A stretch of 63,700 nucleotides of DNA, filler included, from Craspedostauros australis (taxonomy: Eukaryota), in NCBI GenBank assembly GCA_030167865.1. It is 11 parts of 11 records of this genome, joined end to end, with 100 filler letters (N's around TTAATTAATTAA, not from the genome) between each part and the next. Parts side by side here need not be neighbours in the genome. Positions count along the whole stretch, not along the records: positions 46,861 to 57,809 come from JALAGF010004569.1; 10 more parts are not named here. One strand, 5' to 3'. The position numbers and the translations under genes are program-made. Position 1 is the first letter of the stretch, and each line of letters starts with the position of its first letter. Below the pieces are notes generated by a model, which saw nothing but the letters and a program-made list of their open reading frames with translations, searched no databases and was not told the DNA's origin. Below, in pieces: positions 21,306 through 62,652 of this stretch.

Positions 21306-21405
21306 NNNNNNNNNNNNNNNNNNNNNNNNNNNNNNNNNNNNNNNNNNNNTTAATTAATTAANNNNNNNNNNNNNNNNNNNNNNNNNNNNNNNNNNNNNNN
21401 NNNNN
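21306..21405. other. Artificial contig linker N44-TTAATTAATTAA-N44 (also 24531-24630, 33614-33713, 36795-36894, 39628-39727, 43027-43126, 46761-46860, 57810-57909, 59472-59571, 62553-62652)
   Basis: Identical 100-nt spacer carrying six-frame stops, ten copies. Confidence 0.99.
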
Positions 21406-24530: not shown

Positions 24531-24708
24531 NNNNNNNNNNNNNNNNNNNNNNNNNNNNNNNNNNNNNNNNNNNNTTAATTAATTAANNNNNNNNNNNNNN
24601 NNNNNNNNNNNNNNNNNNNNNNNNNNNNNNCAAACCAGTGACAACAAGGGGCCAAAACTCCACAACTAGTGTTATCGTGAGTGCATCAACTGCGACCTGG
24701 AGGTAGTA

Positions 24709-26750: not shown

Positions 26751-28875
26751 CCGAACGATGGGGATCATCCAAGAGATGGATGATTGGTTGGATTCCCTGG
26801 TGGAACCGTAGGAATAAACAATAACCACATGCAAGAAACTACGATGCTCTAGAATAGAAACAACAAGCGCTGTTCAGTCTATTTGTCACTGTAATTGCTG
26901 GAAACAAACTGCAGTTGGCTGCACCAACCGAAAACGTATCCCAGGACGAACCAAGGTGGTCTGGAGGAACGATCCTGGTCTCGAAAGGTAAAGACAAGGA
27001 CAAGGACAAGGAAGAGGAAAAGCAACAGCGGCATGAAGCACTTTGTATGCAATCATGATTGTGTTGTTGACAAACACATGGAAGAACAAAAAGAAGCAGC
27101 TTGTATGACATAAGAACAACAACCATGCATATTACCAGGTAGTTTTGGACTCCTGCATCGAACAAGTCTGGCACATCATCTGGCCATCAAGGTTCGCGGA
27201 GATTGGGCCGAGCATCTTGTCAAACCTCTCTGCATCCTGATGCAAGCCAACACTACGCCAGAAGGCAGCAACTGCATATCAACCAATGCCATCAAGGAGT
27301 CTTGGCAAGGAGCGGACTGAGATGGCCTGATATGGACTGCATGGTTGGTGGAGTGGAGAAAGCATGGTCCCAACCCTACTGGGTCATTGGAGCGCCAGAA
27401 ACCCTTCCACTGGCAAGCCAGAGTGACTCACAAACTGTAGCAGGTGGCACTACAATAGTGATCGAGCCGAAATCACAAGCTCCACAAAGAAGGCAAGCGT
27501 GGCATCATGCCACAGGGCATGGACACCGATTGCTAAGCCTTTGTAGAGCTTCCTTGAAGATCTATGCATACCCACCCTGTGTAAGCTTGGTCAGCACCTA
27601 CCAGGAACCCAGCCAAGGAGAGCAGAGTGGCTGCTAGCTGTGTCACATGGCAAGCCGCATACAGAGGCCACAGTTTCTCCAGAGCATCCAGCATAGCTGC
27701 ACCATGCACCATCTGCAGCCAACATCCTCCAGCGTGACCACACGCCCAGCACGCCTCGCAGGAGTCACTGCAAAGGCAGCTGGCGCCGCCACGCGTGTCT
27801 CCTGCATGTACATTGTATATGTACTGGCATACACAATTGTATGCAACCACACAGCAAGGCAAGACCTGCCAACGTTATCCGTTCACACTAAATGACTTAT
27901 GTGGAATAAACGAGGCGGTACGAAAGCAGCTGCAGCACATGGTTATGGATTATAGTCTACATGGCACAACACCAACAACAACAGAAAAAGAACTGTACAC
28001 AGCATGCATGGGGAGGAAGAGAGAAGCAACTTGCATTGTCAGTATGGTAGGCTGGAGTATTATTAGTTGCTACAGGGAGGACCGTCGCGAAGCGCGGATG
28101 CGAGCCAAGGACGAAGTCGCAATGGATGATGGACTGGTTGTCCCGAGTCGAAGGGAAGTCGCAAATACACGAGGAAAGCTACAGCAGAACCTGCGAAATG
28201 GCTGATTCCAACGAACTGCAGGAAAATATGGAAAATAGCAACAATGGACCCACTTTCTATTCTTTCTAAGTCGTATTTACAAAAAAATGCCGTTTTCCCT
28301 TCCCCTCCTTTGTCTCTCCGCTCTTCACTCTCATCATGTCGCTCGGAGTGTTCTCGCTGCTGTCCTTGCCATCCGCGAAAGTGATCTTGCAGAGAGCTCT
28401 CGCTCTCTGTTTCGTTTCGTTTCGTTTCGTTGGCACGTACAATATGACCTATTGCGACGATACTACACTCCACACTTGGCGCAACAATCCCCAAGAACAC
28501 GATGAGGATCTGCGGTCCACGCCGTTGGCACTCCCTCCACGAGAAGCTCGCATGCATGGTGCACACGCACACTCGTACCGAAACAGGCCACGGTGAAGGG
28601 GTGGAGATCGTGTGATGGAGCCCAACAAAGGAAGCGACAGAAGGAGAGAGGACGCAACCGAGAGAAAGCCAGAGAGAGCGAGGAAAGCGAGAGACGACCA
28701 CGCAAACAAGACCACAACAAGCCATGCGATGTAAGCCAAAGTCGAGACTCGTGGTGGAATTGGAACATCCGAGGGCACGATACGATACCATAAAACACTC
28801 AACCGATCATCCAACAGCCGTCCAGGAGGTATCCATCTAAACCATCATCCAACAATCTTCGACCACCATCTCAAC

Positions 28876-30684
28876 ATGCCGACCGTTTCGAACCAACAAC
28901 TCATTGCTGCTGCCAAGGCAGGTGATCAATCCGTGTTGAAGGAATGGAACAAGCAGCATGAAGGATGTGATACCAACTGGGTTACAGATGAATATGGTTG
29001 CACTCCCCTTCATTACGCATGCACCAACGGTCATCTTGATTATGCCAAGTACCTCATTGAATCAACTGGGGATGATATCAACAGCAAAAACAACCATGGT
29101 TTCACTCCCCTACATTGGGTATGCGGCAACGGCCAATTGGAATGTGTCAAGTACCTCATTGAATCATGCCAGGCAGATGTCAACGTCAAAAATACGAATG
29201 GTGACACTCCCCTTCATCGGGCATGCTACCAAGGCCGTTCTGAATGCGTGGAGTACCTCATTGAATCAACAAAGGCCGATGTCGACTGCAAAGACATGGA
29301 AGGTTCCACTCCCCTACATGACGCATGCGCCTATGGCCATCTGGAATGTGCCATGTACCTCATTGAATCCATGAAGGCTGATATCAACAGCAAAAACAAC
29401 TATGGTGACACCCCCCTTCATCGGGCATGCATCAACGGTCATCTGGAGTGTGTCAAGTATCTTGTTGAATCCACCAAGGCTGACGCCAACAGAAAAAACC
29501 TGCAGGGTGACACTCCCCTTCATTGGGCATGCTACAACGGCAGTTCTGAATGCGTGGAGGACCTCATCGAATCAACCCAGGCCGATATCGATATCAAGAA
29601 CAACAGGAACCAAACGCCCCTCGATATGATCAAAGCAGACGATCAAATCAAGATGATGAGATCGATCATCACTGGTCTCAATCACCGCAACTCAAAACTG
29701 CAGCTGCAAATGAACAAACAACGCCGCACAAACACCATCACAAACACCATCACAACATCATCCAAGCACAACAGCCCAGCCACCTGCACAACGACCAACA
29801 TCAGCATCAGCCAAGATCGTCGCAGCGCTGTTCTTACCGAGACCAAGCCAGACGTCACCTTCCTGTGTGGACAAGGCGATGAACAACAACCAATCAAGGC
29901 AAACTCCGGAGTCCTCATGGTCACCGTTCCATCCATTCAGACATTGATCGAATCTGGAATCCAACGTCAACGCTGGAATGACGGAACTGGTGACGAAACT
30001 AGTGACGAAACTGATGATGGCGCCGCCCCCATCCAAACAACCGTCCCTCTTCCCAATCATCAACCCAAACATGTCCGGCATGTCCTCCAATGCATCTACA
30101 CGGGGGAGATATCCTTCGATGATGATGTTCCTGACAACATTGAGACTGACGACAACGCTCATGACAATGCCAATGCTGTTGACGTAAACCAGCCAACCCC
30201 CACCCTCAATGGACGGGACGATTTACACCAGCTGATCCTTGTGGCCAACGAGTTCGGCTTCTGGCGACTCAAGCTTGTTCTTGAAGCGGAGTTGGCCCGC
30301 AAGCATCTCACCAAGGACATCATGACAGATACGTTGATATTCGCTCATCAACACAACTGTGTACTGTTGAAGGATGCCGCAACGAGGTTGGCAGCTGAAA
30401 GTGAGAAAGATATATTCACGCATCCAGATTTCAGCAAGCTGATTCTACAGCCCCAACTGATGGGAGGCATTCATGTCCTGTGCAGTGGAGGAGCCGAGAG
30501 TGATGAGGTTGATGATGAGTACAAGGGCATGTCCATGATGGAGTTGTACAAGGTTGTGGATGAAGGCGCGGGCACTTCGCGCGTGGATACATACATGGAT
30601 CGCGTCGCGTTGTTGGCTTTTGTGCGTTCCATCACATCCTCCAGAGTGATTGAGACTGACGGCACTGCCGAGGGCGAGGAGTGA
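28876..30684 (+). CDS. Ankyrin-repeat plus BTB/POZ domain protein
   Basis: Six full GxTPLHxAC ankyrin repeats (102-bp period) plus caps. BTB: PDVTFLCG...VLQCIYTG...LILVANEFGFWRLKLVLEAEL. Confidence 0.92.
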   Translation: MPTVSNQQLIAAAKAGDQSVLKEWNKQHEGCDTNWVTDEYGCTPLHYACTNGHLDYAKYLIESTGDDINSKNNHGFTPLHWVCGNGQLECVKYLIESCQADVNVKNTNGDTPLHRACYQGRSECVEYLIESTKADVDCKDMEGSTPLHDACAYGHLECAMYLIESMKADINSKNNYGDTPLHRACINGHLECVKYLVESTKADANRKNLQGDTPLHWACYNGSSECVEDLIESTQADIDIKNNRNQTPLDMIKADDQIKMMRSIITGLNHRNSKLQLQMNKQRRTNTITNTITTSSKHNSPATCTTTNISISQDRRSAVLTETKPDVTFLCGQGDEQQPIKANSGVLMVTVPSIQTLIESGIQRQRWNDGTGDETSDETDDGAAPIQTTVPLPNHQPKHVRHVLQCIYTGEISFDDDVPDNIETDDNAHDNANAVDVNQPTPTLNGRDDLHQLILVANEFGFWRLKLVLEAELARKHLTKDIMTDTLIFAHQHNCVLLKDAATRLAAESEKDIFTHPDFSKLILQPQLMGGIHVLCSGGAESDEVDDEYKGMSMMELYKVVDEGAGTSRVDTYMDRVALLAFVRSITSSRVIETDGTAEGEE

Positions 30685-32315: not shown

Positions 32316-33713
32316 GGCACCCGCAGCAGCGTCCTTGCTGCACAGGTCTTGGTTGCTGGCGAAGCTCCAACCGATCCGCTTGCCCAGAATTGGTCGAAAC
32401 TGAGATTGGGAGGTGTACATGCAACGCGGATCGCCGTTCGGAATGCAGCAAATCGATGACCGATGCGACGAACGATGCAACGGATGATGCGATGGCCGAT
32501 GCGATGGATGATCCGACGGCAGGAGCAAGGACTCTGGAAGGGTGGAGTGGAATGGAGTGGAGTGGAGTAAGATGAAGGACGTGTGCTGGATGGAGCAGGC
32601 AGTGCGGTAGAAATGAAACGACGGAGCAGATCGTTGGACGTTCGATGGTCAATGTTGTGGAACAATCCAATGAAATCCAATGCAATGCTGCCTCCTCTCG
32701 CGAAAACCGTCCAACGAATGGATTGCGTGGAGGAATGCCGCCTCTGGCCAATCCGCCTCTGCGCTCGTTTTCGCGCGATGTTCCAAAACTTCAAAATTCG
32801 AAAAATGCACGATCCGGAGCGACGCGGGACTCAGACAATCGATCCAAGAATCGGCGACGATCGAGGAGGCGTCGACCGTTCGGACTCGTTTCACGACTCC
32901 ATGTAGGCTTGTCTGATAGATGAGGCGTGTAGTGATCATTTCGAAACAGTTTTTTTTCACAGCCATCATCGCGAAACGGAACACTCATTTCAGGACTAAA
33001 CTGCCGACGTGTCAGATAGATGGGGCGTGCGGTACTCGTTGTTGGCGGTATTTGTGCGCAGACAGCTTCGAGGAATGGAACGACGAAACGCACAAGAAAA
33101 GAGGCCACAGATCGTGTTTTGTGCCATCGTGTTGTGCTTCCAGAAACAGAAAGAGGGTTGTGGACAGAAACAACCAAGAAAGCATCCAAGGGGGGCAGTT
33201 CAAAATGCAATAATTGGCTCTATTTCATAGCGTTTAAGTCATAAATTGCTTGTTTCCGCCTAGTTCTTATCCTCGACGGAATAATATGGAATTTTTGTTC
33301 TTTTTTGGATAATTGGTGCTTTCCCCCCAAAATTCGCACGAGTTGCTTTCGCTCTTCGTCATTGCTCCATTTCCCCACTTTACACTGTGTCGGTGTTTGC
33401 TGAGCGTGTTTTCGTCTCCGGTCGGCACAAAACAAGGCTGCTGTCTTGGGCCAGCACAGAGCACACAAAACTCACAACCCCAACACTCTCCACAGAGATC
33501 ATTGCTCCACAGAGCACTTCGTTCCTGTAACAATCACAATCACAACAACAACCACAACAGGTACACCAACATCACCACCGCAACAGTGTTTCGTCCATGG
33601 GTGGCTCCTGTATNNNNNNNNNNNNNNNNNNNNNNNNNNNNNNNNNNNNNNNNNNNNTTAATTAATTAANNNNNNNNNNNNNNNNNNNNNNNNNNNNNNN
33701 NNNNNNNNNNNNN

Positions 33714-35658
33714 GTTCGTCGAAGTGGCACTGGTTGCAAGCCTCGCCTGGTGTTGTCGGGATTTGAGTGCACACGCCGTCGCCAAGGGTGATGTCGGCGT
33801 TGAAGTAGAATCCGTATCCCATGAATTGGCACGAGTACAGTGCGGTGCAGGCCAACGCTCCGATTCTGGTGTTGCCCTCGAACTGGTTGTAGTAAGTTTC
33901 ATCGATAATATTACCCACCAGGTCGTACTCCGTGTAGGTGTAGTGCGAATTGACGTAGGAGCACGAACCGTTGTTTGCGCAGGAGCCCCTGCCGATGTTG
34001 ACAAACGAATTTCGCTTGTTGTCCGTGCCCATGTTGCCTCTCGTCGGGGTGGAAGTGAGGTACTCGGCAGTTCCGGCTCCCAGTGCCGCGCACGAATTCG
34101 TTCCGAGGCAAGAAAATGGTTGGACGATGCTGTATCCGTTGGCCTGTGCTCCGAGGGAGTAGCACGCGGAGCCGCCCAGGCAGGAGAATGGGCCGATGAT
34201 GCCAGTCCTCTCACTACCGGAGTTGAAGTTGAAGTAGGAGCAGGCTTTGTCCTGGCCGGGGTTTTGGCAGCTCGACTGGAACACGATCGTTTGCGGTTCG
34301 AGGTTGTCGCAGGAGTTCATTCCGATGCAGCTATTGGCGCTGATGCTGGCGACGCCGACCCAGCTGCAGTCGGCGGCACCTCCGGGGCAGCAGGTGTTGC
34401 CAGACTGTTGGCAAAAAGCGATGGCATCTGTGGCAGTACCCGTGAAGACTTCTCCAGTCGCGCTGGCGGCCTCCTGGAACTGGGCGAGGACTCCGGAGTT
34501 GTCCTTGATTCTGTCGAAGAGCGCGACTCCTTCAGTAATGCTGTCCTGGTTGGCAAAAATGCTGAGAAGATCGGTCTCGTTCTCGATGGTGGCGAGTAGG
34601 TTCTGGCCGTTGGTGTCTGATGGTGTTCCCAACTCCGCCAAGAACTGAACAATATTCGGCGCCAGGCCGCTGGTTGGTGCCGAAGTGGGTGTTGACGTAG
34701 GTGCTGATGTAGGTGCCGACGTGGGTGCTGATGTAGGTGCCGAAGTGGGTGCTGATGTAGGTGCCGAAGTAGGGGCAGACGTAGGTGCGCTGGTCGGTGC
34801 CGAAGTAGGGGCAGAAGTGGGAGCGCTCGTCGGCGCCGAAGTAGGGGCAGACGTTGGTGCGCTGGTCGGTGCCGCCGTGGGTGCGGTGGGTGCTGACGTT
34901 GGCTGCGAAGTCGGTGGGATGGTCCCGGATCGTGTCGGGCCCGCAGTTGGTGCTGCTGTTGGTGCGGTTGGGGACGATGTCGGTGCGCTGGTCGGCGCTG
35001 ATGTCGGGATGCTTGTCGGGGCCGATGTCGGGGCGCTTGTCGGAGCCGATGTCGGTGCGCTGGTCGGTGCTGATGTTGGGGCGCTTGTCGGAGCCGATGT
35101 CGGTGCGCTGGTCGGTGCTGATGTTGGGGCGCTTGTCGGAGCCGATGTCGGTGCGCTGGTCGGTGCTGATGTTGGGGCGCTTGTCGGAGCCGATGTCGGG
35201 GCGCTGGTCGGTGCTGATGTCGGTGCGCTGGTCGGTGCTGATGTTGGGGCGCTTGTCGGTGTCCTGGTCGGTGTGCTGGTCGGTGCCATGGTGACGTCTC
35301 CGTTCTTGGCGCCCTTGTTCATCTTCATGCCGTCCTTGTTCATCTTGCCGTCATCACTGTCGCTGGTCATCATGGTGGGTCCTTCCGTGGTCTTGGCCTT
35401 CTTCTTGTCCATCCCCCCGCCCGCACCAGCGGAGCTGTCCATGTCCTCCTTGGTGCGGCGGAGCCTCCTGGTGAGTCCGGTGATCTTCTCAACCGTCTTC
35501 TCCGAGTCGTCTCCGTAGTAAGTCCACGCGAGCTTGTTGGCTCCGACCTTGGCATCGTCTCTGGAGGGTGAATGCATGCCGGCAAGGAGCTTCTCATCTT
35601 CGACGGCGGAGGCGGCAGCGATGTGCGCCAAAACGAGTGAGCTGATGCGATACTTCAT
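33714..35658 (-). CDS. Secreted mucin-like PTSA-repeat protein with Cys-rich C-terminal repeats (3' truncated)
   Basis: Signal peptide MKYRISSLVLAHIAAASA, >40 PT[SA]x tetrapeptides, then IGxxSCxGxxxC repeats. Confidence 0.9.
34672..35285 (-). repeat. 12-bp coding minisatellite (PTSA) with a 48-bp higher-order period in 35030-35260
   Basis: GGGGCGCTTGTCGGAGCCGATGTCGGTGCGCTGGTCGGTGCTGATGTT recurs on the + strand. Confidence 0.95.
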
Positions 35659-36894
35659 GGTTGATGTGTGTGCGTGGTATCTGAGTTGAGTATTGATAGA
35701 CTAACGTGGAGGGAGGGCAGGGGGCGGATATTAGATATTGAAGCGTCTGCATTGTGGAGAGGTGCACGGTGCCATGCGTGCCGCACGAGTGAGTAGACCG
35801 AAGACGCCAGTGGGCAAAGGTATAGCGGCGGAATGGCAGGCAAAGATGCGGAAAAGAAGAGAAATGTGAGACAAAATGCCCAAGTTTGCTCCGGCGTTCT
35901 CCACTTGATTGGTATTGCGGGAGATCGCGTATCGCGGACTTATCACAGATGCATCGCACATCATCCATCGCTCTGGATCTCGTCTCGCGATGAGTGAAGG
36001 AGCTGCCGTGAACGGCTTGCACACAAAAAACGCAGTGGACCAGCGGAGGCGAGGACCGCAGGAGAATGACTATTTCCTATTCATCCTGGCACCACCCTCT
36101 GCATGTTTTTCATGTTGTGCCGTCCTGCACCCGGTCTTCGCGTTCTGTTTGATGAAGATACAAGACGACACATGGAATGGACCACGTGCTTGGCGTTGCT
36201 CTCGATCGGATCCATGCCGAAGGCCCATGGGCCCTTTGGTTTGTTGTATTGCCTGCGGTCCATGATCGCATCACTGGCACAGCTCCAGTGCACAAGCCGC
36301 ATCATAGAATTCGCCGCATCCAATCACATGAAAACAACCTTCCGACATACAGTATCATTGTGTATGCATGGTGATGTGCTAGTGCGTGTGTGGCAACTAT
36401 GCCTGGCGCAGCGCGGTGTGACTCACCGTGATGTTCGTGCTGTTTGCTGTCGCGGAATGGGAGTGATTGATTGCGTCTGCGTTTGAGCTGGAGCGGCCTT
36501 GAGATTTGTGAGAACGAAAATTGATGTTGGGATGGGACAACGGAGGTACGCAGAGAGTAGGTGCTTCCGCGGTGGTTGGCGGTTGTGCTCTGCAGGTGTG
36601 GACGCTGAAGACTGATCGTTTTTGAATCATTCTCCGCTTTCAGCCAACGTTTTCGTTTGCGTCATCATCTGCGCGTCTCGTGTCGCCGCGTGCTACATCA
36701 CAACAACGCGGCTCTGAACACCATCATGGCACCGTCGTGCCGTCGAAGCGCGCTGCAGTGCAGACCAGGGCCTGTTGTGCACAACAACAACACCNNNNNN
36801 NNNNNNNNNNNNNNNNNNNNNNNNNNNNNNNNNNNNNNTTAATTAATTAANNNNNNNNNNNNNNNNNNNNNNNNNNNNNNNNNNNNNNNNNNNN

Positions 36895-39627: not shown

Positions 39628-39727
39628 NNNNNNNNNNNNNNNNNNNNNNNNNNNNNNNNNNNNNNNNNNNNTTAATTAATTAANNNNNNNNNNNNNNNNN
39701 NNNNNNNNNNNNNNNNNNNNNNNNNNN

Positions 39728-43026: not shown

Positions 43027-43179
43027 NNNNNNNNNNNNNNNNNNNNNNNNNNNNNNNNNNNNNNNNNNNNTTAATTAATTAANNNNNNNNNNNNNNNNNN
43101 NNNNNNNNNNNNNNNNNNNNNNNNNNTGCAAAGGAGAGACCTCAAGACACACAGAAGACGATCCTATCTAGCGTTAGTG

Positions 43180-46760: not shown

Positions 46761-47099
46761 NNNNNNNNNNNNNNNNNNNNNNNNNNNNNNNNNNNNNNNN
46801 NNNNTTAATTAATTAANNNNNNNNNNNNNNNNNNNNNNNNNNNNNNNNNNNNNNNNNNNNCTTTTGCACCTCATCTTCACGCAGTAACACGCACATTTGC
46901 CGTGTTGTCTCCGTGTTAATTTCACTTGCAAATTGCATGAGACCTGTCATGTCTCTCTCATGCTCACAGTTCNNNNNNNNNNNNNNNNNNNNNNNNNNNN
47001 NNNNNNNNNNNNNNNNNNNNNNNNNACAGTAAACAAACACTCTCCTCACCAACAACAACGACTTGATCACTCTACGTTCTCGGTGCGGTATCCTTCACA

Positions 47100-50000
47100 C
47101 CCATCTACGATTACGTTCTAACAGAAGGAGTTGGAGGGTCCATCCCCATCCAATCCAAGGGCACACTGTCATGGACAATACTTGACAATGATGGCAGGCC
47201 ACTGCAGATTTAGATATCCAATGCTTACTACGCGCCACGGCTTCGCATCCATCTGTTCTGTCTGCAGCAATGGTCTGACCAAGGCCCTCACAATCACCAC
47301 TGCAGGCACCTGCGTACCTGCACGACATACGGCAACTACACTGTCCTGCGCTCCTCACGTTGCAAGGTCACAGTATATCATCATCCAGGCACCAACCTGC
47401 CTTTGATGTCTGTCGCCAACACCAAGTGACATGCGCCAGCATTCCTCACTACTTCCAGTCCTCCAAGCAACTCTGAACTTCTCAACATCAACAATGTCCC
47501 CGATATCATGATGGAGGTTCACGAAGATCCCAAGCTTGCCAAGTTGAGGCCCGATCCTCTCCAAGACAACAACACACTGGTCTGTGATCAGTTGGCAACA
47601 CATCCTGTTGGTGCGTCTGACGCACAAGGACAGCTACTCCGGTGGCATCATCACTTGGGACACCTACCCTTCCGTGTCTTGTGCAACATGGCGTCACACA
47701 GCATCATACCACGACACTTGGCCACGGCCAAGTTCCCTCTCTGCATCTATGGCAAAGCCGTCCGTCGGCACAGGCCAAACCATATCATGCACGTTGTCAA
47801 ACGAGCGCGATTCCCAGGGCATATAGTGTCAGTCAACCAGATTTTCTCCTGCCAGCCTGGGGTACTTCCGCAGCAAAACGGCACGCACACCTGGTCGCGA
47901 TACACATGCGTGACAGTGTTTGTTGATCAGTACCTTGGTATTGAGTACGTTCACTTGCAGCTCATCCAGTCTGGTGCCAACACACTGCAAGCCAATCAGG
48001 CTTTCGAGCGCTATGCTCACTCATTCGGTGTCTGCATACACCACTACCACCCCGACAAAGACAGATTCGCTGAGCAGCTGTTCCGCACGGCTGTCGCAGC
48101 AGCCAATCAAATCATCGCATTCTGTGGAGTCAATGCTCACCATCAGAATGGCGTCGCCGAGCGACGCATCCGCGACCTCCAAGAGTCCACTTGCTCGATG
48201 CTCTTGCATTCGCAGCACCATTGGCCTGATGTCATCCATCCGTCTCTATGGCTGTATGCTCTGCGTTACGCCTCTGAGATCCGAAGGAACGCTGCTCGAG
48301 AGGGAGGTATATCGCCACTCCAGCGATTCGCGCAGATCAAGGTCCAACCCTTGATGTAACACTTTCACACATTTGGATGCCCTGTATACATCCGCAAGGC
48401 CGCACTGCAACAGGGATCCCAGGTTCCCAAGTGGAGCAGCCGAGCCAAACATTGCCATATTCCTTGGCATGTCAGCTGAACATGCAAGCAGCGTACCTAT
48501 CGTTCTCAAGATCGACACAGGGTACATATCGCCACAGTTCAATCTGAACTTCGATGGCAGGTTCCAAACGGTCAAGACCAACCCACTAATGCGTCCTGTC
48601 GCATCGCAGTGGCAGCGTCTCACACACATCGACGAACCAGCCGAGCCCTCGCAACAGATTCGCTCCGAATGCATCACACGTGCTGTTCAGCACCAGCTTT
48701 CCGCAAGCACGCGTCCTCCAGGGACCACACACGCTGCACCTGATGCCAAGCCATTCCAGCTTGACATGCAGCACAAGATGCACGACCTTCCAAGGTCCAG
48801 CCTTCCAAGGCACAGTCTTCCAAGACAACCAGCAAGCTCACCTTCAGAGGGAGCTACGCCATCGCCACACAGAACGCATCACGATCTGCTACATCCGCAA
48901 CAGAATGTGCAGAGACCAACCAGACTACACTCCAACTCCAATCCTACCACACATACACTGCTCAATCCTTCCACGCATCTGACATCCTCAACATGAACTC
49001 GGGCGATCTGCACCCTATGTCATTCGCAGCAACACTCGCAGACGATGACACTATGTACTGGGGGCAAATGCAGAAGCAGCATGACTGTGACAAATTCATT
49101 GAAGCAATGCACAAAGAGATCGAAGACCACCAATCCAGACAACATTGGGAGGTCATTCAACGCACTCGTGTGCCAAAAAGGCACAAGATCCTGAAAGCTG
49201 TCTGGTCATTCAAACGCAAATGCAGACTTGCAACCGGCGAGATCTACAAGTGGAAAGCACGGCTACGCGTGCATGGAGGAGAGCAACAATATGGTGTCAA
49301 CTACTGGGAAACATTTGCACCTGTTGTGCAATGGTCCACCATCCAGACATTCCTCACCATGGCCGTCCAACAGCACTGGCACACTTGCCAAATCGACTTT
49401 TTGTTCTGGAGTTCCCACAAGCGGATGTGGAATGCGACATCTTCATGCAAGTACCTCAGGGGTGCAACATGGACGGAGACAGCAGGTCTCACGTTCTCCA
49501 ACTCAAGAAAAATCTGTACAGCACCAAGCAAGCAGCATTGGTATGGCATCGGCATGTGGTTGACAGCCTGATGCAGCATGGATTCCGGCAAAGCCAAGTT
49601 GACGAATGCCTTCTCTGCAAGGGCAACACATCCATTCTGCTGTACGTTGACGACACCATCATCATTGGCCCACGCAAACACGAGATCGATGACATCATCG
49701 AGCGCCTCAAGGCACGGTTCACACTAACCAACGAAGGCAACATGGATGATTATCTGGGCGTTCACATCCAACGTACTGATGACACCATCACACTCTCACA
49801 ACCGCAACTCATAGATCGAATCATACGAGCAGCCAAGATCGATCCTGACTCACCAGGACGAACCTATTCGACGCCAGCCGTCAAACCGCTCCTATACAAG
49901 GACACTGGTGGCCCTGCTGCCACTTGGCGATTCGAATATCAGTCAGTTGTGGGGATGCTCAACTTCCTCACATGATCAACGAGACCTGATATCTGCTTCG

Positions 50001-50635
50001 CAGTCCATCAATGCGCACGCTTCATGGCTCATCCGATGAAGTCACACAAAGATGCCATCGAATGGATTGTACGATACCTTGCTCACACATGGGATATGGG
50101 ACTCCGCATCTCACCTACCCAATGACTCCATTCACTGCTATGCTGATGCAGACTTCGCAGGAGGCTTCACACAAGCCAACAACGACCCCAACACGGCAAA
50201 AGTCGTACCGGATATGTCATCCTGTATGCAGGATTCCCCATCATATGGAACTCCAAACTGCAAACAGAAGTCGCACTCAGCACCACAGAAGCCAAGTACG
50301 TGGCTCTCAGCCAAGCTCTATGAGAGGTTATACCCATCATACACCTCATCAACGAAATGAAGCAGCACATATCGTCATTCGACACTTCTCTGCCAACAGT
50401 TCACTGCACAGCATTTGAGGACAACTCCGGTGCCCTCGAACTCGCAAACGCACCCAGAATGCGTCCTCGTACCAAACACATCAATGTCAAATACCATTAC
50501 TTCCATGAAGCTGTCAGCAAAGGGCTCATCACCATCGAACAGGTCGACACGTTGGACCAGATGGCCGATATATTCACCAAGCCCTTGGCACGTTCACTAT
50601 TCAAATCTCTGCGATTGCGACTATTGGGATGGTAA
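47100..50635 (+). pseudogene. Degenerate CoDi-type Ty1/copia pol (integrase-RT-RNase H)
   Basis: WHHHLGH, HQNGVAERRI, WKARL...YWETFAPVV, LYVDD, YADADFAG, FEDNSGA...RTKHINVKYH, QMADIFTKPL. Multiple frameshifts. Confidence 0.95.
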
Positions 50636-50668
50636 GCACGGTCCGCTCGTGCCACCGACAAGAGGGAG

Positions 50669-50858
50669 TGTGCAGATTAAGTGCCAATTCACGAATCTGG
50701 CCGAATCCGAACGATGATTGTCAATGGGCAGACGATACCGCACAAACGACGAGTAGGATCCACACTGAGCAAATGACCACCCTGCACGGACATAATTTTC
50801 AGAACAGATAGGTTTCACCCCATCTCCCACACTTCCGGTCACGTGAAAAACCTTCACA
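50669..50858 (+). repeat. 3' LTR (190 bp) after a PPT
   Basis: PPT AAGAGGGAG (50660-50668); termini TGTGCAG...CTTCACA. Confidence 0.75.
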
Positions 50859-51099
50859 AAGATTTGATTGTGCAGAAATATTTGCATATGAGAAGACACT
50901 TCTTCAACCACTGACCTCCAACCAAAACAAGAAACCTGATAGAGAATGGCTTGGGTTTGAGAGAAGTGCAAACCGAATCATCTTGAAATACATGAATACG
51001 ATCAACCAAGAGGTGCAGACAGCAGAAGAGAGAGAGAGAGAGATAGCTTAAGTAATCATATTTTGGTCTTACATCCACAACAACAACATCCATCATCAT

Positions 51100-51768
51100 T
51101 AGCAAAACAACATCAATTGTATGAACATCAATCATCCGTCGGCATAAGGCAACATGCCAATGATTGTTCTTAGCATAGTCGGCAAACCGAGGAAGAAACA
51201 ATTCGATATTGCTCAGGTACGGTAAGGCAATGGCATAGAAGTAGGTGTAGAAAGTACAAACAATGCAGGAGATGCAGATGTTGTCCATACTTAATCTCAG
51301 TTCCATGTCACAGAAACGTCCACGATGTGCCAGACAGTACAGCATGAGCAGCAATCCCATTTCATAGGATACCAAGTATTGGTTCTTGACCTGAATGCAT
51401 GCAGGGTCATTCTCACCAGACACTGCCTGGAACTTTGGCCAGAGACGGTCAGCCAAGCATTGGAGGTAGCATGCTTGGAAGCGGAAGTGAGGAATAGCTT
51501 CGGTGTCAGCCAATTCTAAGATGGCAATGTTTCTGTTCGTATACAAAGGAGGAGGACCCAATGGACGGAGATAGAGCTGCTGCATCTCTAGCACATGGCA
51601 GCCTAATGCAATAGCGTGACTGTAGTACTCCACAAGAATGGTGACACCAGTGTAGTTCAGACCCTGCACATCAATCTGCGAAAGCTGATTCACAGCCTCG
51701 ACAAATCGATCGTGGGCTTCTTGCAATGCCTGCCTCTCTGGAAGGGAGTTCCAAATACGCAGCACCAT
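51100..51768 (-). pseudogene. Truncated PIF/Harbinger-like transposase (N-terminal HTH region)
   Basis: HFRF...L..LADRL...LLLMLYCLAH...DME...ISCIV pattern; DDE core not seen. Confidence 0.6.
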
Positions 51769-52139
51769 TAGAAAGAGAAGGACCAGCTACAGTGCGTGGA
51801 GAAAGGTTGTATATGCGAAAGCGTGGTGAACACGGAAGAATTGAAGAAACCACGAGTATAGCATCAAGTGCAGTGTGGAAGAAATCTGTCATGCAGGTAC
51901 CAAAAACCGGAAGGAGGTGATGTGTCGACAGAGGCATCAGCAAATGTGATGTTCTTCAGCACGAATCAAACCGAACGTGACTAAATTAATCGCACAGTTT
52001 TGGCGCGAACGCAATATCGCTCGAGTTAATCCAAGCAGTATTCTGTCACGAATCAGTCCTGTGCGGTTTTCGTGCTCGAGATTCAATGCGAACCGCGACA
52101 TGACACAGGGGCCGGGGGAACAGAATGCGAAAGTCCTCT

Positions 52140-53509
52140 AATGGAACACACGAAAATGAGCAGAATTTCTGGAGGAAATTTGCAATCGACGATTTCTGAG
52201 AGAATTAGAACATCGTCCGTCCATCCATCAATGGTTGATAATCAGCAACTACACACAGGAAAAGGGCACCAAACACTGCACTTACTACGCCGCCAGGGTG
52301 ATCAATCCATCAGGTGGAGTTGGAGATGTTTGGTGTTCTTTGTTGTTCTAATAGGTTGTGTCCAATTGATGATTGAGTTTGGATTATGAGAACATGATCT
52401 CATCATTCCAAAGATGGTGCCTATTGCACGAGTTTCTAATGTGCTGCTCGATTACCTCGTGGTTTATCTCGCAGTCTTTCCTAAAACATTGCCCAAGATG
52501 GCATGTTGATTTACACGATATCNNNNNNNNNNNNNNNNNNNNNNNNNNNNNNNNNNNNNNNNNNNNNNNNNNNNNNNNNNNNTCTGTTTGATCATATATG
52601 GATTGATCCGTCTACGTCGACGAGGTGCATGCATCACCTCTGACAATGTTGTTCTGGATCCTAAATGTTGTTGCCACGTGCTCAATGATGCATTTGGCAT
52701 TGCTAGACAGGTCAGCATACCATGACTAAAATATAATCTCGATTCCGAGGATCACAATGACCGATCCTCTGACGTCATACGATGATGTCAGTGCCTACGT
52801 CAGGTTCGATGACTGTAGTGACTGAATCTCAATCGTGTAATCAAGACTCACTCGACTATACTCTCAAATCGAGTCGAATCAAAAATAATGAATCATGTTT
52901 CAGTCATGGGAGATAGGTACCTAATTTCGATCTAGATGTTGATAATGGTACCAAGAGAATCTCGAGGTACTTCCCAACTAAACCTCAGATGACGATATCA
53001 TCTGACAGGTTGCTGCATCACCAATGGAACATGACATCTGGAGAGCAGAAGGACGCCTACTGGCATTGACAGGATGTCATCGTGTCACCATGTCGACATC
53101 TGTCTCCAAGTCAGAGCAAGAGGCGAAGATCCGATGACCGAAGGACATCAGGATCATGGATATGGGAGATGAACTTCAAATGGTAAGTACTCATGGAGTA
53201 GGAGCCAGTACTGAATGAACGGAGTGTTGAATGTGGAGTACGCATCGAACATGGAGTATCGTGCAGCACGAAGTACACGATACTAAGACAAAGAGAGAGA
53301 GAATACAAAGAGCAGCGAGAGAGCATCTCGCACACCGACTCATAGTCAGAGACCAAATCTACAAAACAGATTGAAGCGCCAAGATCATCTGGCAAGAGAA
53401 CGGACACCGAGAGGATCGGAGTGCCAACGTAATGAAATAGCAAACGAACAACTATTAACCAACACCATCTTCCACGATCGTAGGTTACCGTGAGCGTAAC
53501 TTGCCAACA
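52140..53509 (+). repeat. Family A LTR copy (may start at TGTCACG, 52044); contains an N gap
   Basis: 53150-53509 matches 21410-21762. 52140-52230 and 52965-53155 are inverted matches to 55186-55277 and ~54960-55152. Confidence 0.7.
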
Positions 53510-55277
53510 ACTTTCAGGTTGAACGTGAGTTGGTGATGGAAGTTCACGATGTGAGTTTTGTATTCGTTGCTTACTGTGCTGAGGATCTGCATGATCATCT
53601 CCTCTTCGCTGATCGTGTATTCGACATCGTGGAGGCGGGAGCGTAGAAGCTCGAGCCATGTGATGTAGATGGCGGGGTCCATGTCTCTCTTCATCTTTTC
53701 ATTGTTGAATTGACGCTTGAGTTTGATTTTGGTTGCTGCATCGGATGGTTGGAACTTCTCCGCGAGAATGTTCCACACTTCATGTGGTAATCATCAGAGA
53801 CGCACTGGTTGATGTATTGGATGGCCTGCTTGCCCTTTCCCTTCTCTGCGTCTATCATGAGGATTAGATCGCTGAAGCAGTTGGCTGCCAGCTCATGGAC
53901 TTCCTCCATCGACTCCTTGTCTTTTCCTCTGGCTTCTCCGATCTCACTCATCGTTGGGATCTTCGTCTTGCCCAACATCACATCTATTGTCTTCTGCGTA
54001 CGCACATACGCCTTCGCTTGGGACTCCCAGGCATTGTAGTCCTCCTGACTACCACTGAACAACGGCGCCTTGATGCGTCGCTTGTTCATTTTGGCTGATG
54101 TCGCCATGTTGCTTCGTTGTTTTGTTGATGGTGCGCGCACGCTCCTGATTTCCGTTTGTTTCTGTGTGATGACTTTTTCAATTTTCGCTCATGTTTGCGC
54201 GGAGATGTGTTTCGTCACAAATTCTCCTCTGCGTGCCGTCTCACTTTTTCCGTGTTGCTTGGCTGTGCGAATGCTCTTCGTCACACCAGTCTCTTCTTGT
54301 TTGATCGCCTTGAGAATGCTCTTCTGCACGAATCATAGTCTCGCAAACCATTCCTCGTTGGTCTCATTGGTTGTGCTTCCTTCTTCGTTAGAGAGGACAG
54401 TGGGCGCACCCACTTCCTTCTGCTGTTGAAGTCAAGTCTCACTCGCACCTTCTTCTTGCTTGATAGCCGGATTGGACAGAGGGATGTCTTTCAATTCCTC
54501 TTCCTTGCTCATTCAGCCTACTGCTCTTGAAGGATGTTGTCTCCCTCGTACGATCCAATCCTCAGGCTTGCCCTGATCTATCGTTTATAAACATGTTGGC
54601 AAGTCTTGTGAACAGATACTTTGCGATTGTGGAAGACGGTATTGATTGTTACGATTATGTTTGCTATTTCATTACATAGACACTCCAATCCTCTCAGTGT
54701 CTCTTGTTCTCTTGCCTGATGCTCTTGGCATGTCTCTCTTGTTGGTCTGACTATGAGTTGGTATGAAAGATCCTCTCCCGCTGTTGTTCATGCTCTCTCT
54801 CGCTCTCTCTCTCAATGTTGCCTATTCACACCATACAATATTCCGTACTTGACATGTACTCCGCATGCAGTACATACTCCGTCGTTTTGTTCTCTGTTGG
54901 CCCATTACTCTGTGAGTAGTCGCCAATACTCCCACACTGCATTCCTCCTTGCATACTCACGATCTTGATGTCCCTTTAGTCATTGAATCTTTGCCTTCTT
55001 GATCTGATGTTGAGACGGATGTCGACATGGTGACACAATGGCATCTTGTCAACATCAGCTGTTGGTTCCATGGTCCTTCTGATTCCACATTCCATTGATG
55101 ATGCAATGGTCTGGCAGATGATATTGTCATTTGAGGTTTAGTTGGGAAGTACATCAAGCTTCGCTCGATGCCATACGTTTGCAGTGATGGATGGACGGAC
55201 GATGTTCCTGATTCTCTCAGAAATCGTTGATTGCAAATTTCCTCCAGAAATTCTGCTCATTTTCATGTGTTCCATTT
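53510..55277 (-). pseudogene. Decayed family A copia: 5' LTR remnant (54594-55277) and truncated gag (ATG 54512 to 53510)
   Basis: Clear paralogue of the 21845 gag (MATSAKMNKRRIKAPLFSG..., WNILAEKFQPSDA) with stops and frameshifts. Confidence 0.92.
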
Positions 55278-55324
55278 CCACTGTGATTTTGACCATCACA
55301 GCATACTATTGGCACTAATGTAGT

Positions 55325-55903
55325 TGTACCGTCCGTACATATATAAGAGAATAACGGGTGAACGATGCACATATACATGTACATCTTGACATGTACTCAC
55401 ATGTACATCTCGACAGCCCGGTCGGCAGCAGCGACGTTGCGACCAAAAAGCACAATCCCTTCGTCAACATCTACAAGGACGGCAAGGAGGATACCCTGCG
55501 GCGACAGATCCAGCGCACGAAGAACCGTGCCACCAACATCCTCCTCGAGAGCTCGCAAATCGACCAAATGGAGGATGATGATCAAGGCCTGCGCGTGGAC
55601 CAGCTGCTGCAGGAAACGGATGAGATCCTGGAGGAGGCCACCCTCGAGATCAAAAAGTCCGAACACAATCGCAACAGCTGGCATATCCGCAAGGCCATCT
55701 CGCTGTGTGACGACGATGATCTTGACGAAGATTGACAATTCTCACAGAATTCCTTACTTCTTACTTCTCTACTAATCCTATTAGTCAAATACTGGTCGGG
55801 GGGCTGTCTTCGGACAGCACTCACAAATAAACAACAAGAGCTCCGACCAGGGCACGAAACAACGGGCCAATACATCTTTCGTAGTTACTTGCACTGTTTG
55901 ACA
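55325..55903 (+). repeat. Putative 5' LTR (~579 bp) of copia family B
   Basis: TGTACC...TTTGACA termini, AATAAA at 55826, immediately followed by a PBS-like sequence. No second LTR in the window, so the left end is tentative. Confidence 0.6.
55391..55735 (+). CDS. 114-aa acidic helical ORF within the putative LTR
   Basis: Uninterrupted ORF with mostly C/G-ending codons, similar to the adjacent gag; no recognised family. Confidence 0.55.
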   Translation: MYSHVHLDSPVGSSDVATKKHNPFVNIYKDGKEDTLRRQIQRTKNRATNILLESSQIDQMEDDDQGLRVDQLLQETDEILEEATLEIKKSEHNRNSWHIRKAISLCDDDDLDED

Positions 55904-55924
55904 GATTCAGAGTCGTGCTTACCA
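55904..55924 (+). promoter_or_regulatory. Primer binding site complementary to the 5' half of tRNA-Gln(CUG)
   Basis: GATTCAGAGTC is the reverse complement of the anticodon arm GACTCTGAATC. GTGCTTACCA is the reverse complement of the D-arm-like TGGTAAGCAC. Confidence 0.75.
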
Positions 55925-55979
55925 ACACTGAGCAACACCCAACACCACATCACCTTTTACCATCGTACGAGTTACCACC

Positions 55980-57377
55980 ATGGACCGGCCAACCAACATC
56001 AACACCTTCAACAAGATCATCCAAGAGCTGGTACAGCTCGATGACGAAGAGATGGCGTTCATCGGCGAGAAACTCGGGAGAATCGATCGTGTCATCCGCA
56101 ACTCGGACGCCACCATCGTGGCGGCCTTGGCGCTCTCGCCAACGCTGTCATCAATCAACATCACCAACATCCTGCGCATCTTCGCATACGCAAGGTCCAA
56201 CACCATCACCGCACGCACCGATTGGGCAGCAATCGACTTGTTCAACGAAGCGAACAGCTACGAACCACCGGAAGTCAGCACGCCAGTTGCGAACGCTGCT
56301 GCTCAAGTGCGATCGGAGATGGCGATCAGGGAGGCAGCCGCAGCAGCGGATGCCACTGGGACAGCGGGTCGCGAAATCACCGTCAGCTCACCGAGCCGCG
56401 CGAAACGCACCCCGCGATCACCACGAACCCCACGGACTCCATCAGGATGGAAGTTCGACAAGATCAGCATGCCGGAGGCACCCGAATTCACCGGGAACAA
56501 CAGCGACTGGTATGACTGGAAGATCGCGTTCAAGCGACAGCTGGTTACATCCAGATACGCCGCGTACCTCGATGTCGACAAGCCATCGCATTTCGCAGAG
56601 GACATCGACGCGCAGCTCTACACTGTCCTGCACACCAAGACAGAGAAGGGATGCGCGGCATTCATCGTGGAAGCACACGAACCGAACGGCCATGACACAT
56701 ACCAGGCGCTCATACGCAACTATGAATCCGTCGACCACAAAGCTGAGGCCATCGCAGAGGAAGAACAGAAGATCGCCGAACTCCGTTACGACGGATCAGA
56801 GCCATTCCCAGTATTCGTCAACGCTTTCTCCAAGTGCATCCGTGTCATGGAGCAGAACGGAAAGCAGATGACCGACCAGCAGAAGATCGCGAAGTTCTTT
56901 CGCAACATCACCGACGACCGCTTCACAAGCGAGATGTCCAGATTCCGCAACACGGAACACTCCTTCAACGCAATTCGTGAGGCGTTCATGCAACATGACG
57001 CGCTCCTCACGAAATCGGAAGGACACTACTCTCCCAAGCGCAACCGTCGCTACCAACAGAAGGACACCAAGGATGACCGCAAGAGGCTGCGCGAATCCTC
57101 CAAGTGGGATCGCAAGGGCGCCGCATCGTTTCGGTTGCCGGACTCCGTCTTCCGTCGCATGCCGGTGAGCACTCAAGTGCTCCTCGTCGAAGCATCTCGT
57201 CACTTCCGCACCACTGGGAAACCAATCGATGAGGAAACCCTCAAGCGCAACAAGCCAACAGAGTACGCGCGCAACCTGGAGTTGCCCATGACCCAGCGAG
57301 GACCCAAGCGGCCTCGCACGGGCGATCACAAGACCGGACGACCTGGCACCCAAGGACCATGGAACGCCGGTTCTTGA
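55980..57377 (+). mobile_element. gag of copia-like (CoDi) family B
   Basis: PEFTGNNSDWYDWK, and YDGSEPFPVFVNAF...MTDQQKIAKFFRNI (UBN2-like); basic C-terminus; intact 465 aa. Confidence 0.85.
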
Positions 57378-57809
57378 CAATCAAAGACGGGCACAACTCG
57401 CCGTCAGTCGGAGATTGTCATCCACCTCAAACCCCGCGACTGTAGGGGGGCGAGCGTGACGACCGCAGCGGGAATGCCCGGACGTGCACGTCCGGTGGCA
57501 CCACAAGAGTCCCGTCCGTGCACAACCCACCCGACAGTGGAGCACTGCATCCGAAGGGCAAGAGTAACGAACGATAGCCAAGGCTTTATCATCCTAGACT
57601 CAGGGGCGGACGGAGACATCGTTCATGCGTCGGGCTGGGAGGTGACCCACACACACCAACAAGAGTTTCGTGCCCGAGGGGCGACGATCAACTCACCAAT
57701 CGAGACATTCCAGATGGTCGACGCCGTGGCAGCATACGAGCCCCCATCAGGCGGCGTGATCCTCATCAAAGCAAACTACGTGGCTCTCGACAAGCATCCA
57801 CAGCAGACG
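57378..57809 (+). mobile_element. pol N-terminus (aspartic protease), in frame with gag after a single UGA
   Basis: No stops from 57378 to the contig end. IILDSGAD active site and VDAVAAYE...VILIKAN, a CoDi-type protease. Confidence 0.85.
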
Positions 57810-57909
57810 NNNNNNNNNNNNNNNNNNNNNNNNNNNNNNNNNNNNNNNNNNNNTTAATTAATTAANNNNNNNNNNNNNNNNNNNNNNNNNNNNNNNNNNN
57901 NNNNNNNNN

Positions 57910-59471: not shown

Positions 59472-59571
59472 NNNNNNNNNNNNNNNNNNNNNNNNNNNNN
59501 NNNNNNNNNNNNNNNTTAATTAATTAANNNNNNNNNNNNNNNNNNNNNNNNNNNNNNNNNNNNNNNNNNNN

Positions 59572-62552: not shown

Positions 62553-62652
62553 NNNNNNNNNNNNNNNNNNNNNNNNNNNNNNNNNNNNNNNNNNNNTTAA
62601 TTAATTAANNNNNNNNNNNNNNNNNNNNNNNNNNNNNNNNNNNNNNNNNNNN

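Follow-up and report, generated by a model that had tools for sequence, protein, structure and literature searches.

The 63,700-nucleotide stretch of Craspedostauros australis DNA analyzed here (the window; adjoining contigs in it are not necessarily neighbors in the genome) contains, on the scaffold at 46861-57809, an open reading frame of 114 codons (ORF114) which lies on the same strand as, and directly upstream of, a gag-like gene. ORF114 is very probably protein-coding, either as a real or as a very recently real coding sequence, and a link to the retrotransposon behind it is plausible. Tentatively, it is regarded as being carried in the long terminal repeat (LTR) or leader, i.e., in the 5′ end, of a young Ty1/copia-like element. 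This possible assignment is preferred over the less likely one in which ORF114 is a host gene with the element inserted next to it. The features on which the argument depends are the following:

55340-55347, plus strand: TATA-like box TATATAAG, a match to TATAWAWR located 51 nt before the ATG of ORF114; putative promoter element
55376-55415, plus strand: repeat cluster, consisting of two copies of CATGTACATCTYGACA (55376-55391 and 55400-55415) and a third ACATGTAC at 55389-55396
55391-55735, plus strand: ORF114, with its ATG at 55391 and its TGA at 55733-55735; 114 codons plus stop, acidic product of 13.2 kDa
55792-55850, plus strand: branched RNA stem-loop with the basal stem CUGGUCGGGG/CUCCGACCAG, the inner hairpin GCUGUC-UUCG-GACAGC and AAUAAA in a 15-nt loop
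55826-55831, plus strand: AATAAA, 91 nt past the stop codon of ORF114
55980-57377, plus strand: gag465, a gag-like ORF with 465 codons and a TGA stop; strong start context (accATGg) and coding rank 5 of 205
57375-57809, plus strand: protease-like region, in which the in-frame TGA is followed by CAA TCA and then by DSGA at 57597-57608; it ends with the scaffold

Coding signature of ORF114 and its product

An earlier note on this DNA had described an intact ORF of 114 amino acids, and the frame is indeed uninterrupted from ATG to TGA; it is already open from 55355. As the window holds 205 stop-to-stop frames of at least 100 codons, the length of ORF114 by itself lies within chance, and two further frames are open across the same stretch (55365-55775 on the plus strand and 55397-55738 on the minus strand). 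The feature of ORF114 that goes beyond chance is its coding signature, not its length. The GC contents at its three codon positions (GC1/2/3 = 0.61/0.30/0.75) resemble those of the Pfam-supported genes of the window. In a codon log-odds model with four training sets taken from other genes of the window (host genes only; transposable element (TE) genes only; TE genes without gag465; gag465 alone), ORF114 reached +47 to +52 bits in frame, compared with −14 to −65 bits for the two shifted plus-strand frames and +11 to −103 bits for the three minus-strand frames. When all 205 frames were ranked per codon, ORF114 took the third place, with the overlapping frames on ranks 26, 121 and 203. In sliding windows of 30 codons the coding signal went up at the ATG of ORF114, stayed at +13 to +18 bits throughout and went down at its stop codon; it did not return before about 55931, where it lies in the gag frame. 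This three-base periodicity together with the in-frame score, the high rank and the confinement of the signal to the ORF supports the earlier characterization of ORF114 as protein-coding-like. A coding scan across the scaffold revealed no candidate upstream exon for ORF114, and all other coding-like stretches on this scaffold are TE genes.

The observed/expected ratio of CpG is 1.03 for ORF114 and 1.21 for gag465, both of which are hence undepleted, compared with 0.69-0.83 for the older neighbors. This ratio did not separate host genes from TE genes, and as an age signal it is weak evidence.

The predicted product of ORF114 has a pI of 4.76 and contains 16 Asp and 10 Glu residues, in line with its previous description as acidic. 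A single-sequence AlphaFold2 model placed helices at residues 33-55 and 65-105, with low confidence (predicted local distance difference test (pLDDT) 64, predicted template modeling score (pTM) 0.25), and suggests that a disordered N-terminus is followed by the two helices and then by an acidic tail. From the earlier wording "helical or coiled-coil-like" the helical part is plausible, given the two helices modeled at this pLDDT.

A word-indexed search against 5.8 billion proteins, covering near lengths only, returned no relatives of ORF114. A full HMMER search against 1.84 billion representatives of all lengths yielded one marginal bacterial match (E value 9.8e-4). The matching protein, a helical repeat protein of 288 amino acids with a signal-like N-terminus, was judged to be a composition match. 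In Pfam only sub-threshold matches to MLKL_N and DUF7822 were obtained. Membership in MLKL_N (PF22215) was rejected, with 18.2 bits (E value 0.0019) being below the gathering cut-off of 27 bits and the match being one of helical composition. Among PDB sequences the best match was NMD3 at an E value of 0.03, which does not amount to similarity to any solved protein, and the ESM Atlas gave no usable match. A Foldseek comparison, which the earlier note had proposed as a check, yielded nothing usable against the PDB either (best E value 7.9, with the low-confidence model as query). ORF114 also shares no similarity with gag465 (BLASTP, E value 2.3). As far as these sequence searches reach, ORF114 is an orphan without known relatives.

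The window contains the 16-mer CATGTACATCTYGACA exactly two times, compared with 0.16 expected occurrences, and two or more copies were found in none of 100 shuffles. Every ACATGTAC includes an ATG, and that of the middle one is the start codon of ORF114. The first copy of CATGTACATCTYGACA ends on the A of this ATG and the second one lies within codons 4-9. The short repeats which had been said to precede the ORF are thus real, but they overlap its start. The heptamer CATGTAC is over-represented in the window as a whole (18 sites compared with 5.9 expected; 18 sites were reached in none of 100 shuffles). Its sites include 54853, 55376, 55390 and 55400, three of which cluster at the start of ORF114.

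Signals around ORF114 and the downstream element

Both sequence motifs that bracket ORF114 are infrequent in the window. TATAWAWR has three matches on both strands, two of them on the plus strand, and AATAAA was found four times (three times on the plus strand) compared with 9.7 expected occurrences; its presence downstream of ORF114 agrees with the earlier note. The five Pfam-supported host ORFs of the window, which served as the host-gene comparison set, do not include any with AATAAA within 300 nt downstream, and neither the TATA box nor AATAAA is used by any of the five. The host genes of the window seemingly do without canonical AATAAA and TATAWAWR signals. The stem-loop that presents the AAUAAA has a predicted folding energy of −27.9 kcal/mol, compared with −13.1 ± 2.3 kcal/mol for shuffled sequences (z = −6.37), and none of 200 shuffles was as stable. 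A search of 50600-57809 against Rfam yielded no matches at E values up to 1. Immediately 3′ of the AATAAA lies the sequence CAACAAG. According to passages of a review of LTR structure (PMC3601003), copia LTRs typically contain a conserved TATATA box, with a CAACAAA polyadenylation site being present in those of Sire and Tnt1. The succession of TATA box and AATAAA around ORF114 follows the order of the unique 3′ region (U3) and the repeat region (R) of an LTR and matches these copia features, though such an order is not specific for LTRs. The arrangement is LTR-like, and it is equally like that of a small independent gene.

The ATG of gag465 lies 244 nt downstream of the stop codon of ORF114 on the same strand, and the gag frame is open from 55932. 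Neither gag465 nor the protease-like region had a match in Pfam, even at E values up to 10, and no near-length relatives of gag465 were found by sequence. Its best matches among PDB sequences were to Ty1 Gag p22, with a weak E value of 0.41. The Atlas yielded 29 look-alike clusters of unnamed proteins (up to 0.93), the first one of which is recorded as Bacillariophyta, as well as a cluster of Ty1 TYA at 0.83. An AlphaFold2 model of residues 160-420 was unusable (pLDDT 41.5). The assignment of the protease-like region is based on its D-S-G-A motif and on its position after gag. As the weak leads from the PDB and the Atlas all point toward Ty1/copia Gag, the downstream element was accepted as copia-like. 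On these weak leads it may be a Ty1/copia-like retrotransposon, the Pol domain order of which would lie beyond the end of the scaffold.

An N-terminal extension of about 165 residues (55980-56480), helical at first and then rich in Ala, Pro and Arg, precedes an F-x-G-x-N...W motif in gag465. In copia Gag this motif is usually found close to the N-terminus, and in the minus-strand gag at 54140 it occurs near residue 17. The sequence TGA-CAA-TCA at 57375-57383 fits the stop-CAR-YYA context by which readthrough is promoted in some plant viruses. Readthrough of the stop codon may therefore yield Gag-Pol, unless the TGA is a mutation of this copy.

Several lines of evidence led to the assignment of ORF114 to this element. 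ORF114 is intact and, like the young gag, undepleted in CpG, which is weak evidence. The scaffold does not contain any other coding sequence apart from that of TEs, and the TATA box and AATAAA are foreign to the host genes of the window. Moreover, ORF114 has no relative in other diatoms. This is unlike the hydrolase gene at 18093-19526 (minus strand), for which 209 relatives were found, all organism-named ones being from diatoms (Epithemia, Seminavis, Entomoneis, Nitzschia and others).

If ORF114 is carried by the element, a cassette of about 0.6 kb, comprising the TATA-like box at 55340, ORF114 and the AAUAAA hairpin, could represent most of the 5′ LTR, which may begin with the TG at 55282 and end with the CA at 55902-55903. 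Transcription would be expected to start approximately 30 nt past the TATA box, near 55370. With the TATA box and AATAAA being part of one LTR, ORF114 would consequently be placed in the transcribed R and not in U3. Use of the polyadenylation signal of the LTR itself would give rise to mRNAs of about 0.45-0.5 kb which encode only the acidic two-helix protein, and read-through of the hairpin-embedded signal would give rise to the genomic gag-pol RNA. On the latter, ORF114 would be the 5′-proximal frame and the translation of gag would be damped. The balance between mini-protein and Gag-Pol might in this way be set by stopping at, or reading through, the hairpin signal, and with ORF114 located in R a 3′ LTR would not be required for its expression. 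We infer the LTR nature of the cassette, its transcription start and polyadenylation sites, the two classes of transcripts and the role of the protein. That an LTR encloses a complete gene of this kind (TATA box, ORF and hairpin-held polyadenylation signal) lying in R is considered rather doubtful.

The unexplained interval, its neighbors and competing explanations

Similarity to other parts of the window stops at 55276, which sets the left limit of an unexplained interval of 703 bp (55277-55979), the middle half of which is ORF114. Upstream of this interval the scaffold, which has internal gaps at 46973-47025 and 52523-52582, contains the following features:

47430-50632, plus strand: decayed copia pol with gag_pre-integrase and RVT_2 matches and several frameshifts
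50670-50858: LTR of 189 bp (TGTGCAG...CTTCACA)
52140-55276, minus strand: remnant of an older retroelement with inverted arms; its gag (53485-54140) is on the minus strand

The arms of the remnant match each other at 95% (52140-52233 and 55182-55276) and at 69% (52945-53480 and 54624-55174), and its flanks, TCCTCT at 52134-52139 and TCCACT at 55277-55282, agree in five of six positions. Its fold-back point lies near a CGATCG palindrome, and a relative with the same fold-back layout was found on another contig (21406-22863). The decayed copia pol is followed on its 3′ side by the purine tract AAGAGGGAG and then by the 189-bp LTR, the last ~60 bp of which recur on another contig (43400-43458, 87% identity, ending in CTGCACA). 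Further repeats in the window are 12-nt tandem repeats at 34605-35323, which form part of a long ORF on the minus strand with matches to PT repeats in Pfam, and repeats of 102 nt at 28996-29601, which represent the ankyrin units of an Ank/BTB gene (28735-30681). The contigs of the window are joined by ten linkers (21306-21405, 24531-24630, 33614-33713, 36795-36894, 39628-39727, 43027-43126, 46761-46860, 57810-57909, 59472-59571 and 62553-62652), each built of 44 N's, 12 bases and 44 N's; in the one linker that was read these bases are TTAATTAATTAA (57854-57865).

The 703 bp between 55276 and the ATG of gag465 must accommodate the LTR, a primer binding site (PBS) and the leader. Two layouts are compatible with the data. 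In the first, the LTR is long (about 0.6 kb, TG at 55282 through CA at 55902-55903) and encloses the TATA box, ORF114 and the hairpin with the AATAAA. In the second, the LTR is short (about 171 bp, TGACAA at 55733 through TTGACA at 55903) and starts at the stop codon of ORF114, which would turn ORF114 into host DNA flanking the element, perhaps a truncated gene. Both lengths are within the range of 153-844 bp that is given for diatom copia LTRs in passages of a published survey (PMC2806351).

A number of points weigh against ORF114 being located inside an LTR. Searches of the window with blastn and tblastn revealed no second copy of 55277-55979, and the scaffold ends at 57809 in the protease region, so that the 3′ end of the element lies outside the scaffold; an LTR around ORF114 is hence unproven. 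As moreover the sole TATA-like box lies upstream of the ORF, its earlier placement inside the U3 of an LTR was not upheld. An enumeration of TG...CA termini, short inverted repeats and target-site duplications resulted in many equally weak candidates, with and without ORF114 inside and with none standing out; they include 55282-55903, 55290-55903 (flanks GATTT/GATTC) and short ones starting near 55717-55733. No PBS was identified between the stop codon of ORF114 and the gag ATG. The only TGG in 55736-55979, at 55793, is base-paired in the hairpin stem and therefore is a poor PBS candidate. As it also lies upstream of the AATAAA, the PBS which had been reported downstream of the ORF could not be confirmed. 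The window does not contain any gene for a transfer RNA. A transcribed R of about 480 nt combined with a U3 of about 90 nt would be unusual, and the presence of ORF114 and several intervening AUGs ahead of gag should impair gag translation. The 189-bp LTR illustrates that short LTRs occur here, so that a short LTR 3′ of ORF114 is feasible. As this neighboring LTR has neither a TATA box nor AATAAA, such signals are no general mark of LTRs in this genome. Finally, the best identities obtained for the hydrolase at 18093-19526 were only 38-40%, with nothing near 100% being returned. This species' own proteins are therefore seemingly absent from the protein collections, and the lack of same-species copies of ORF114 is uninformative.

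Smith-Waterman comparisons of the interval with the 189-bp LTR and with the contig at 43127-43520 gave scores of 18-22, which is chance level (shuffle mean 19.3). An imperfect direct repeat (55276/55889) and a 10-mer common to the interval and the 189-bp LTR were both judged not significant.

The explanation that competes most closely takes ORF114 for an orphan gene of the host or for the 5′ portion of such a gene. The element would then have inserted just behind it or into its 3′ end, with a short LTR downstream, for example at 55733-55903. In this layout the TGA of ORF114 would come from the bases with which the LTR begins, and the AATAAA hairpin would belong to the LTR as well. Small lineage-specific genes are common in diatoms, the candidate LTR ends TGACAA and TTGACA form an inverted match in five of six positions, and the codon score does not discriminate host-like from TE-like usage (+48.2 bits with host and +52.3 bits with TE training). 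In addition, a 189-bp LTR is present on the same scaffold, and LTRs of diatom copia elements as short as 153 bp are listed in parts of the published survey (PMC2806351). However, an element of this design would have to be driven by a U3 of approximately 60 nt without a TATA-like box, and the rest of the scaffold is all TE-derived or non-coding. The TATA box and the AATAAA, neither of which is used by any of the five Pfam-supported host ORFs, and the absence of any ORF114 homologue among the proteomes and transcriptomes of other diatoms speak against a host gene, too, as does the intact, CpG-undepleted state of ORF114, which resembles the young gag and not the older surroundings. Taken together, a host origin appears unlikely, although it deserves to be taken seriously.

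Clearly less probable is a location of ORF114 as an internal additional ORF (aORF) between the 5′ LTR and gag, with the true LTR being further left and split off by the insertion at 52140-55276. The similar flanks of this insertion would suggest that it entered once-continuous DNA, and aORFs upstream of gag-pol are documented in parts of a published account (PMC7264820). Yet the flank match is weak (about 0.03 by our own estimate, allowing for freedom of the boundaries), and the left flank (50859-52139) is CpG-depleted (0.69), unlike the unit around ORF114, and has no recognizable LTR feature. Furthermore, the TATA box and ORF114 are located on the same side of the split, and the hairpin with the AATAAA would fall into the leader, where a polyadenylation signal is unexpected. 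Slightly more improbable still is that, within TE-rich DNA, the frame of ORF114 is open merely by chance or is left over from a dead fragment without present function. The abundance of frames of at least 100 codons in the window, the three frames open across the stretch of ORF114 and its lack of homologues, of a domain and of a confident fold would all fit such an origin. The strong three-base periodicity, a rank far ahead of those of the overlapping frames, the sharp edges of the coding signal at ATG and stop and the rare promoter-like and polyadenylation-like motifs bracketing the ORF in the correct order do not. The least probable of the alternatives, and a very improbable one, is that ORF114 represents a 5′ exon of Gag, with a splice from GT at 55705 (GTGTGA) to AG at 55965-55966 joining codon 104 in frame to gag and removing the stop codon of ORF114, the hairpin and the AATAAA. 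The phases fit, the gag frame is open from 55932, and the N-terminal extension of gag465 is unusually long before its copia-Gag-like motif. On the other hand, the donor is weak, an intron of 262 nt is long for diatoms, gag has its own ATG in a strong start context, and the acidic tail and stop codon of ORF114 resemble a natural C-terminus.

The possible assignment of ORF114 to the copia-like element itself thus continues to be preferred. Of the earlier proposal that ORF114 is an accessory gene of the element, the protein-coding character is supported. ORF114 is moreover an orphan on the same strand as gag and is bracketed by LTR-style signals, the order of which partly contradicts the placement in U3.

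Comparison with known systems

If ORF114 is indeed part of the LTR of a copia-like element, each copy of this LTR, solo LTRs among them, would act as a miniature gene from which an acidic two-helix protein is expressed. This would also suggest that switching between the genomic RNA and a short mRNA is built into the element. A coding unit wholly within a copia-type LTR, especially in its R and in a diatom, would be an unusual architecture. If ORF114 were a host orphan beside the insertion of an element with short LTRs, the finding would be ordinary.

The diatom CoDi elements of the Ty1/copia type share with the element described here the diatom host, a gag-pol with "one or no stop codon/frameshift" in between and, with LTRs ranging from 153 to 844 bp, a size class that accommodates an LTR of 0.6 kb, all as given in parts of their description (PMC2806351). 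They differ in that its main-text passages do not describe an extra ORF (PMC2806351). One phrase-based literature search, covering titles and the starts of abstracts, returned no relevant report on retrotransposon ORFs encoded within an LTR. Most known cases of additional genes in LTR-bearing retroelements come from retroviruses and from Ty3/gypsy elements of plants. Plant aORFs occur mostly in Ty3/gypsy elements, and Steinbauerova et al. reportedly described them in 2011 in plant LTR retrotransposons, including positions upstream of gag-pol. According to passages of a later source, plant aORFs resemble ORF114 in being extra, family-specific sense ORFs next to gag without known domains, and differ from it in being internal, in being defined by their conservation across copies and in lying mostly between pol and the 3′ LTR (PMC7264820). 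ORF114, in contrast, belongs to a diatom, is associated with a copia-like element of which a single copy was read, and is possibly located inside the LTR.

Coding sequences which lie in or overlap the terminal repeat of a retroelement are represented by sag of mouse mammary tumor virus (MMTV) and nef of human immunodeficiency virus (HIV). Both overlap the U3 of the 3′ LTR, and the mRNAs from which they are expressed are either spliced or made from internal promoters. In the case of ORF114, the TATA-like box upstream and the polyadenylation signal downstream would rather place the ORF in the R of an LTR that is itself putative. HIV-1 also contains a poly(A) hairpin in R, in which AAUAAA is embedded in a stable stem-loop that tunes the use of the 5′ versus the 3′ signal. 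The stem-loop downstream of ORF114 resembles it in presenting AAUAAA in a stable structure of a putative transcribed repeat; the two are not related by sequence or Rfam family, and the function suggested here is deduced from one sequence. Whether the protein encoded by ORF114 has a self-regulatory role is a matter of speculation. Ty1 p22, a small N-truncated Gag which is encoded by the element and made via an alternative transcript, restrains its own retrotransposon. ORF114 differs from a protein of this type in having no similarity to gag465 (E value 2.3), yet p22 (PDB 7nlh) provides a possible model of how an element-encoded mini-protein could act.

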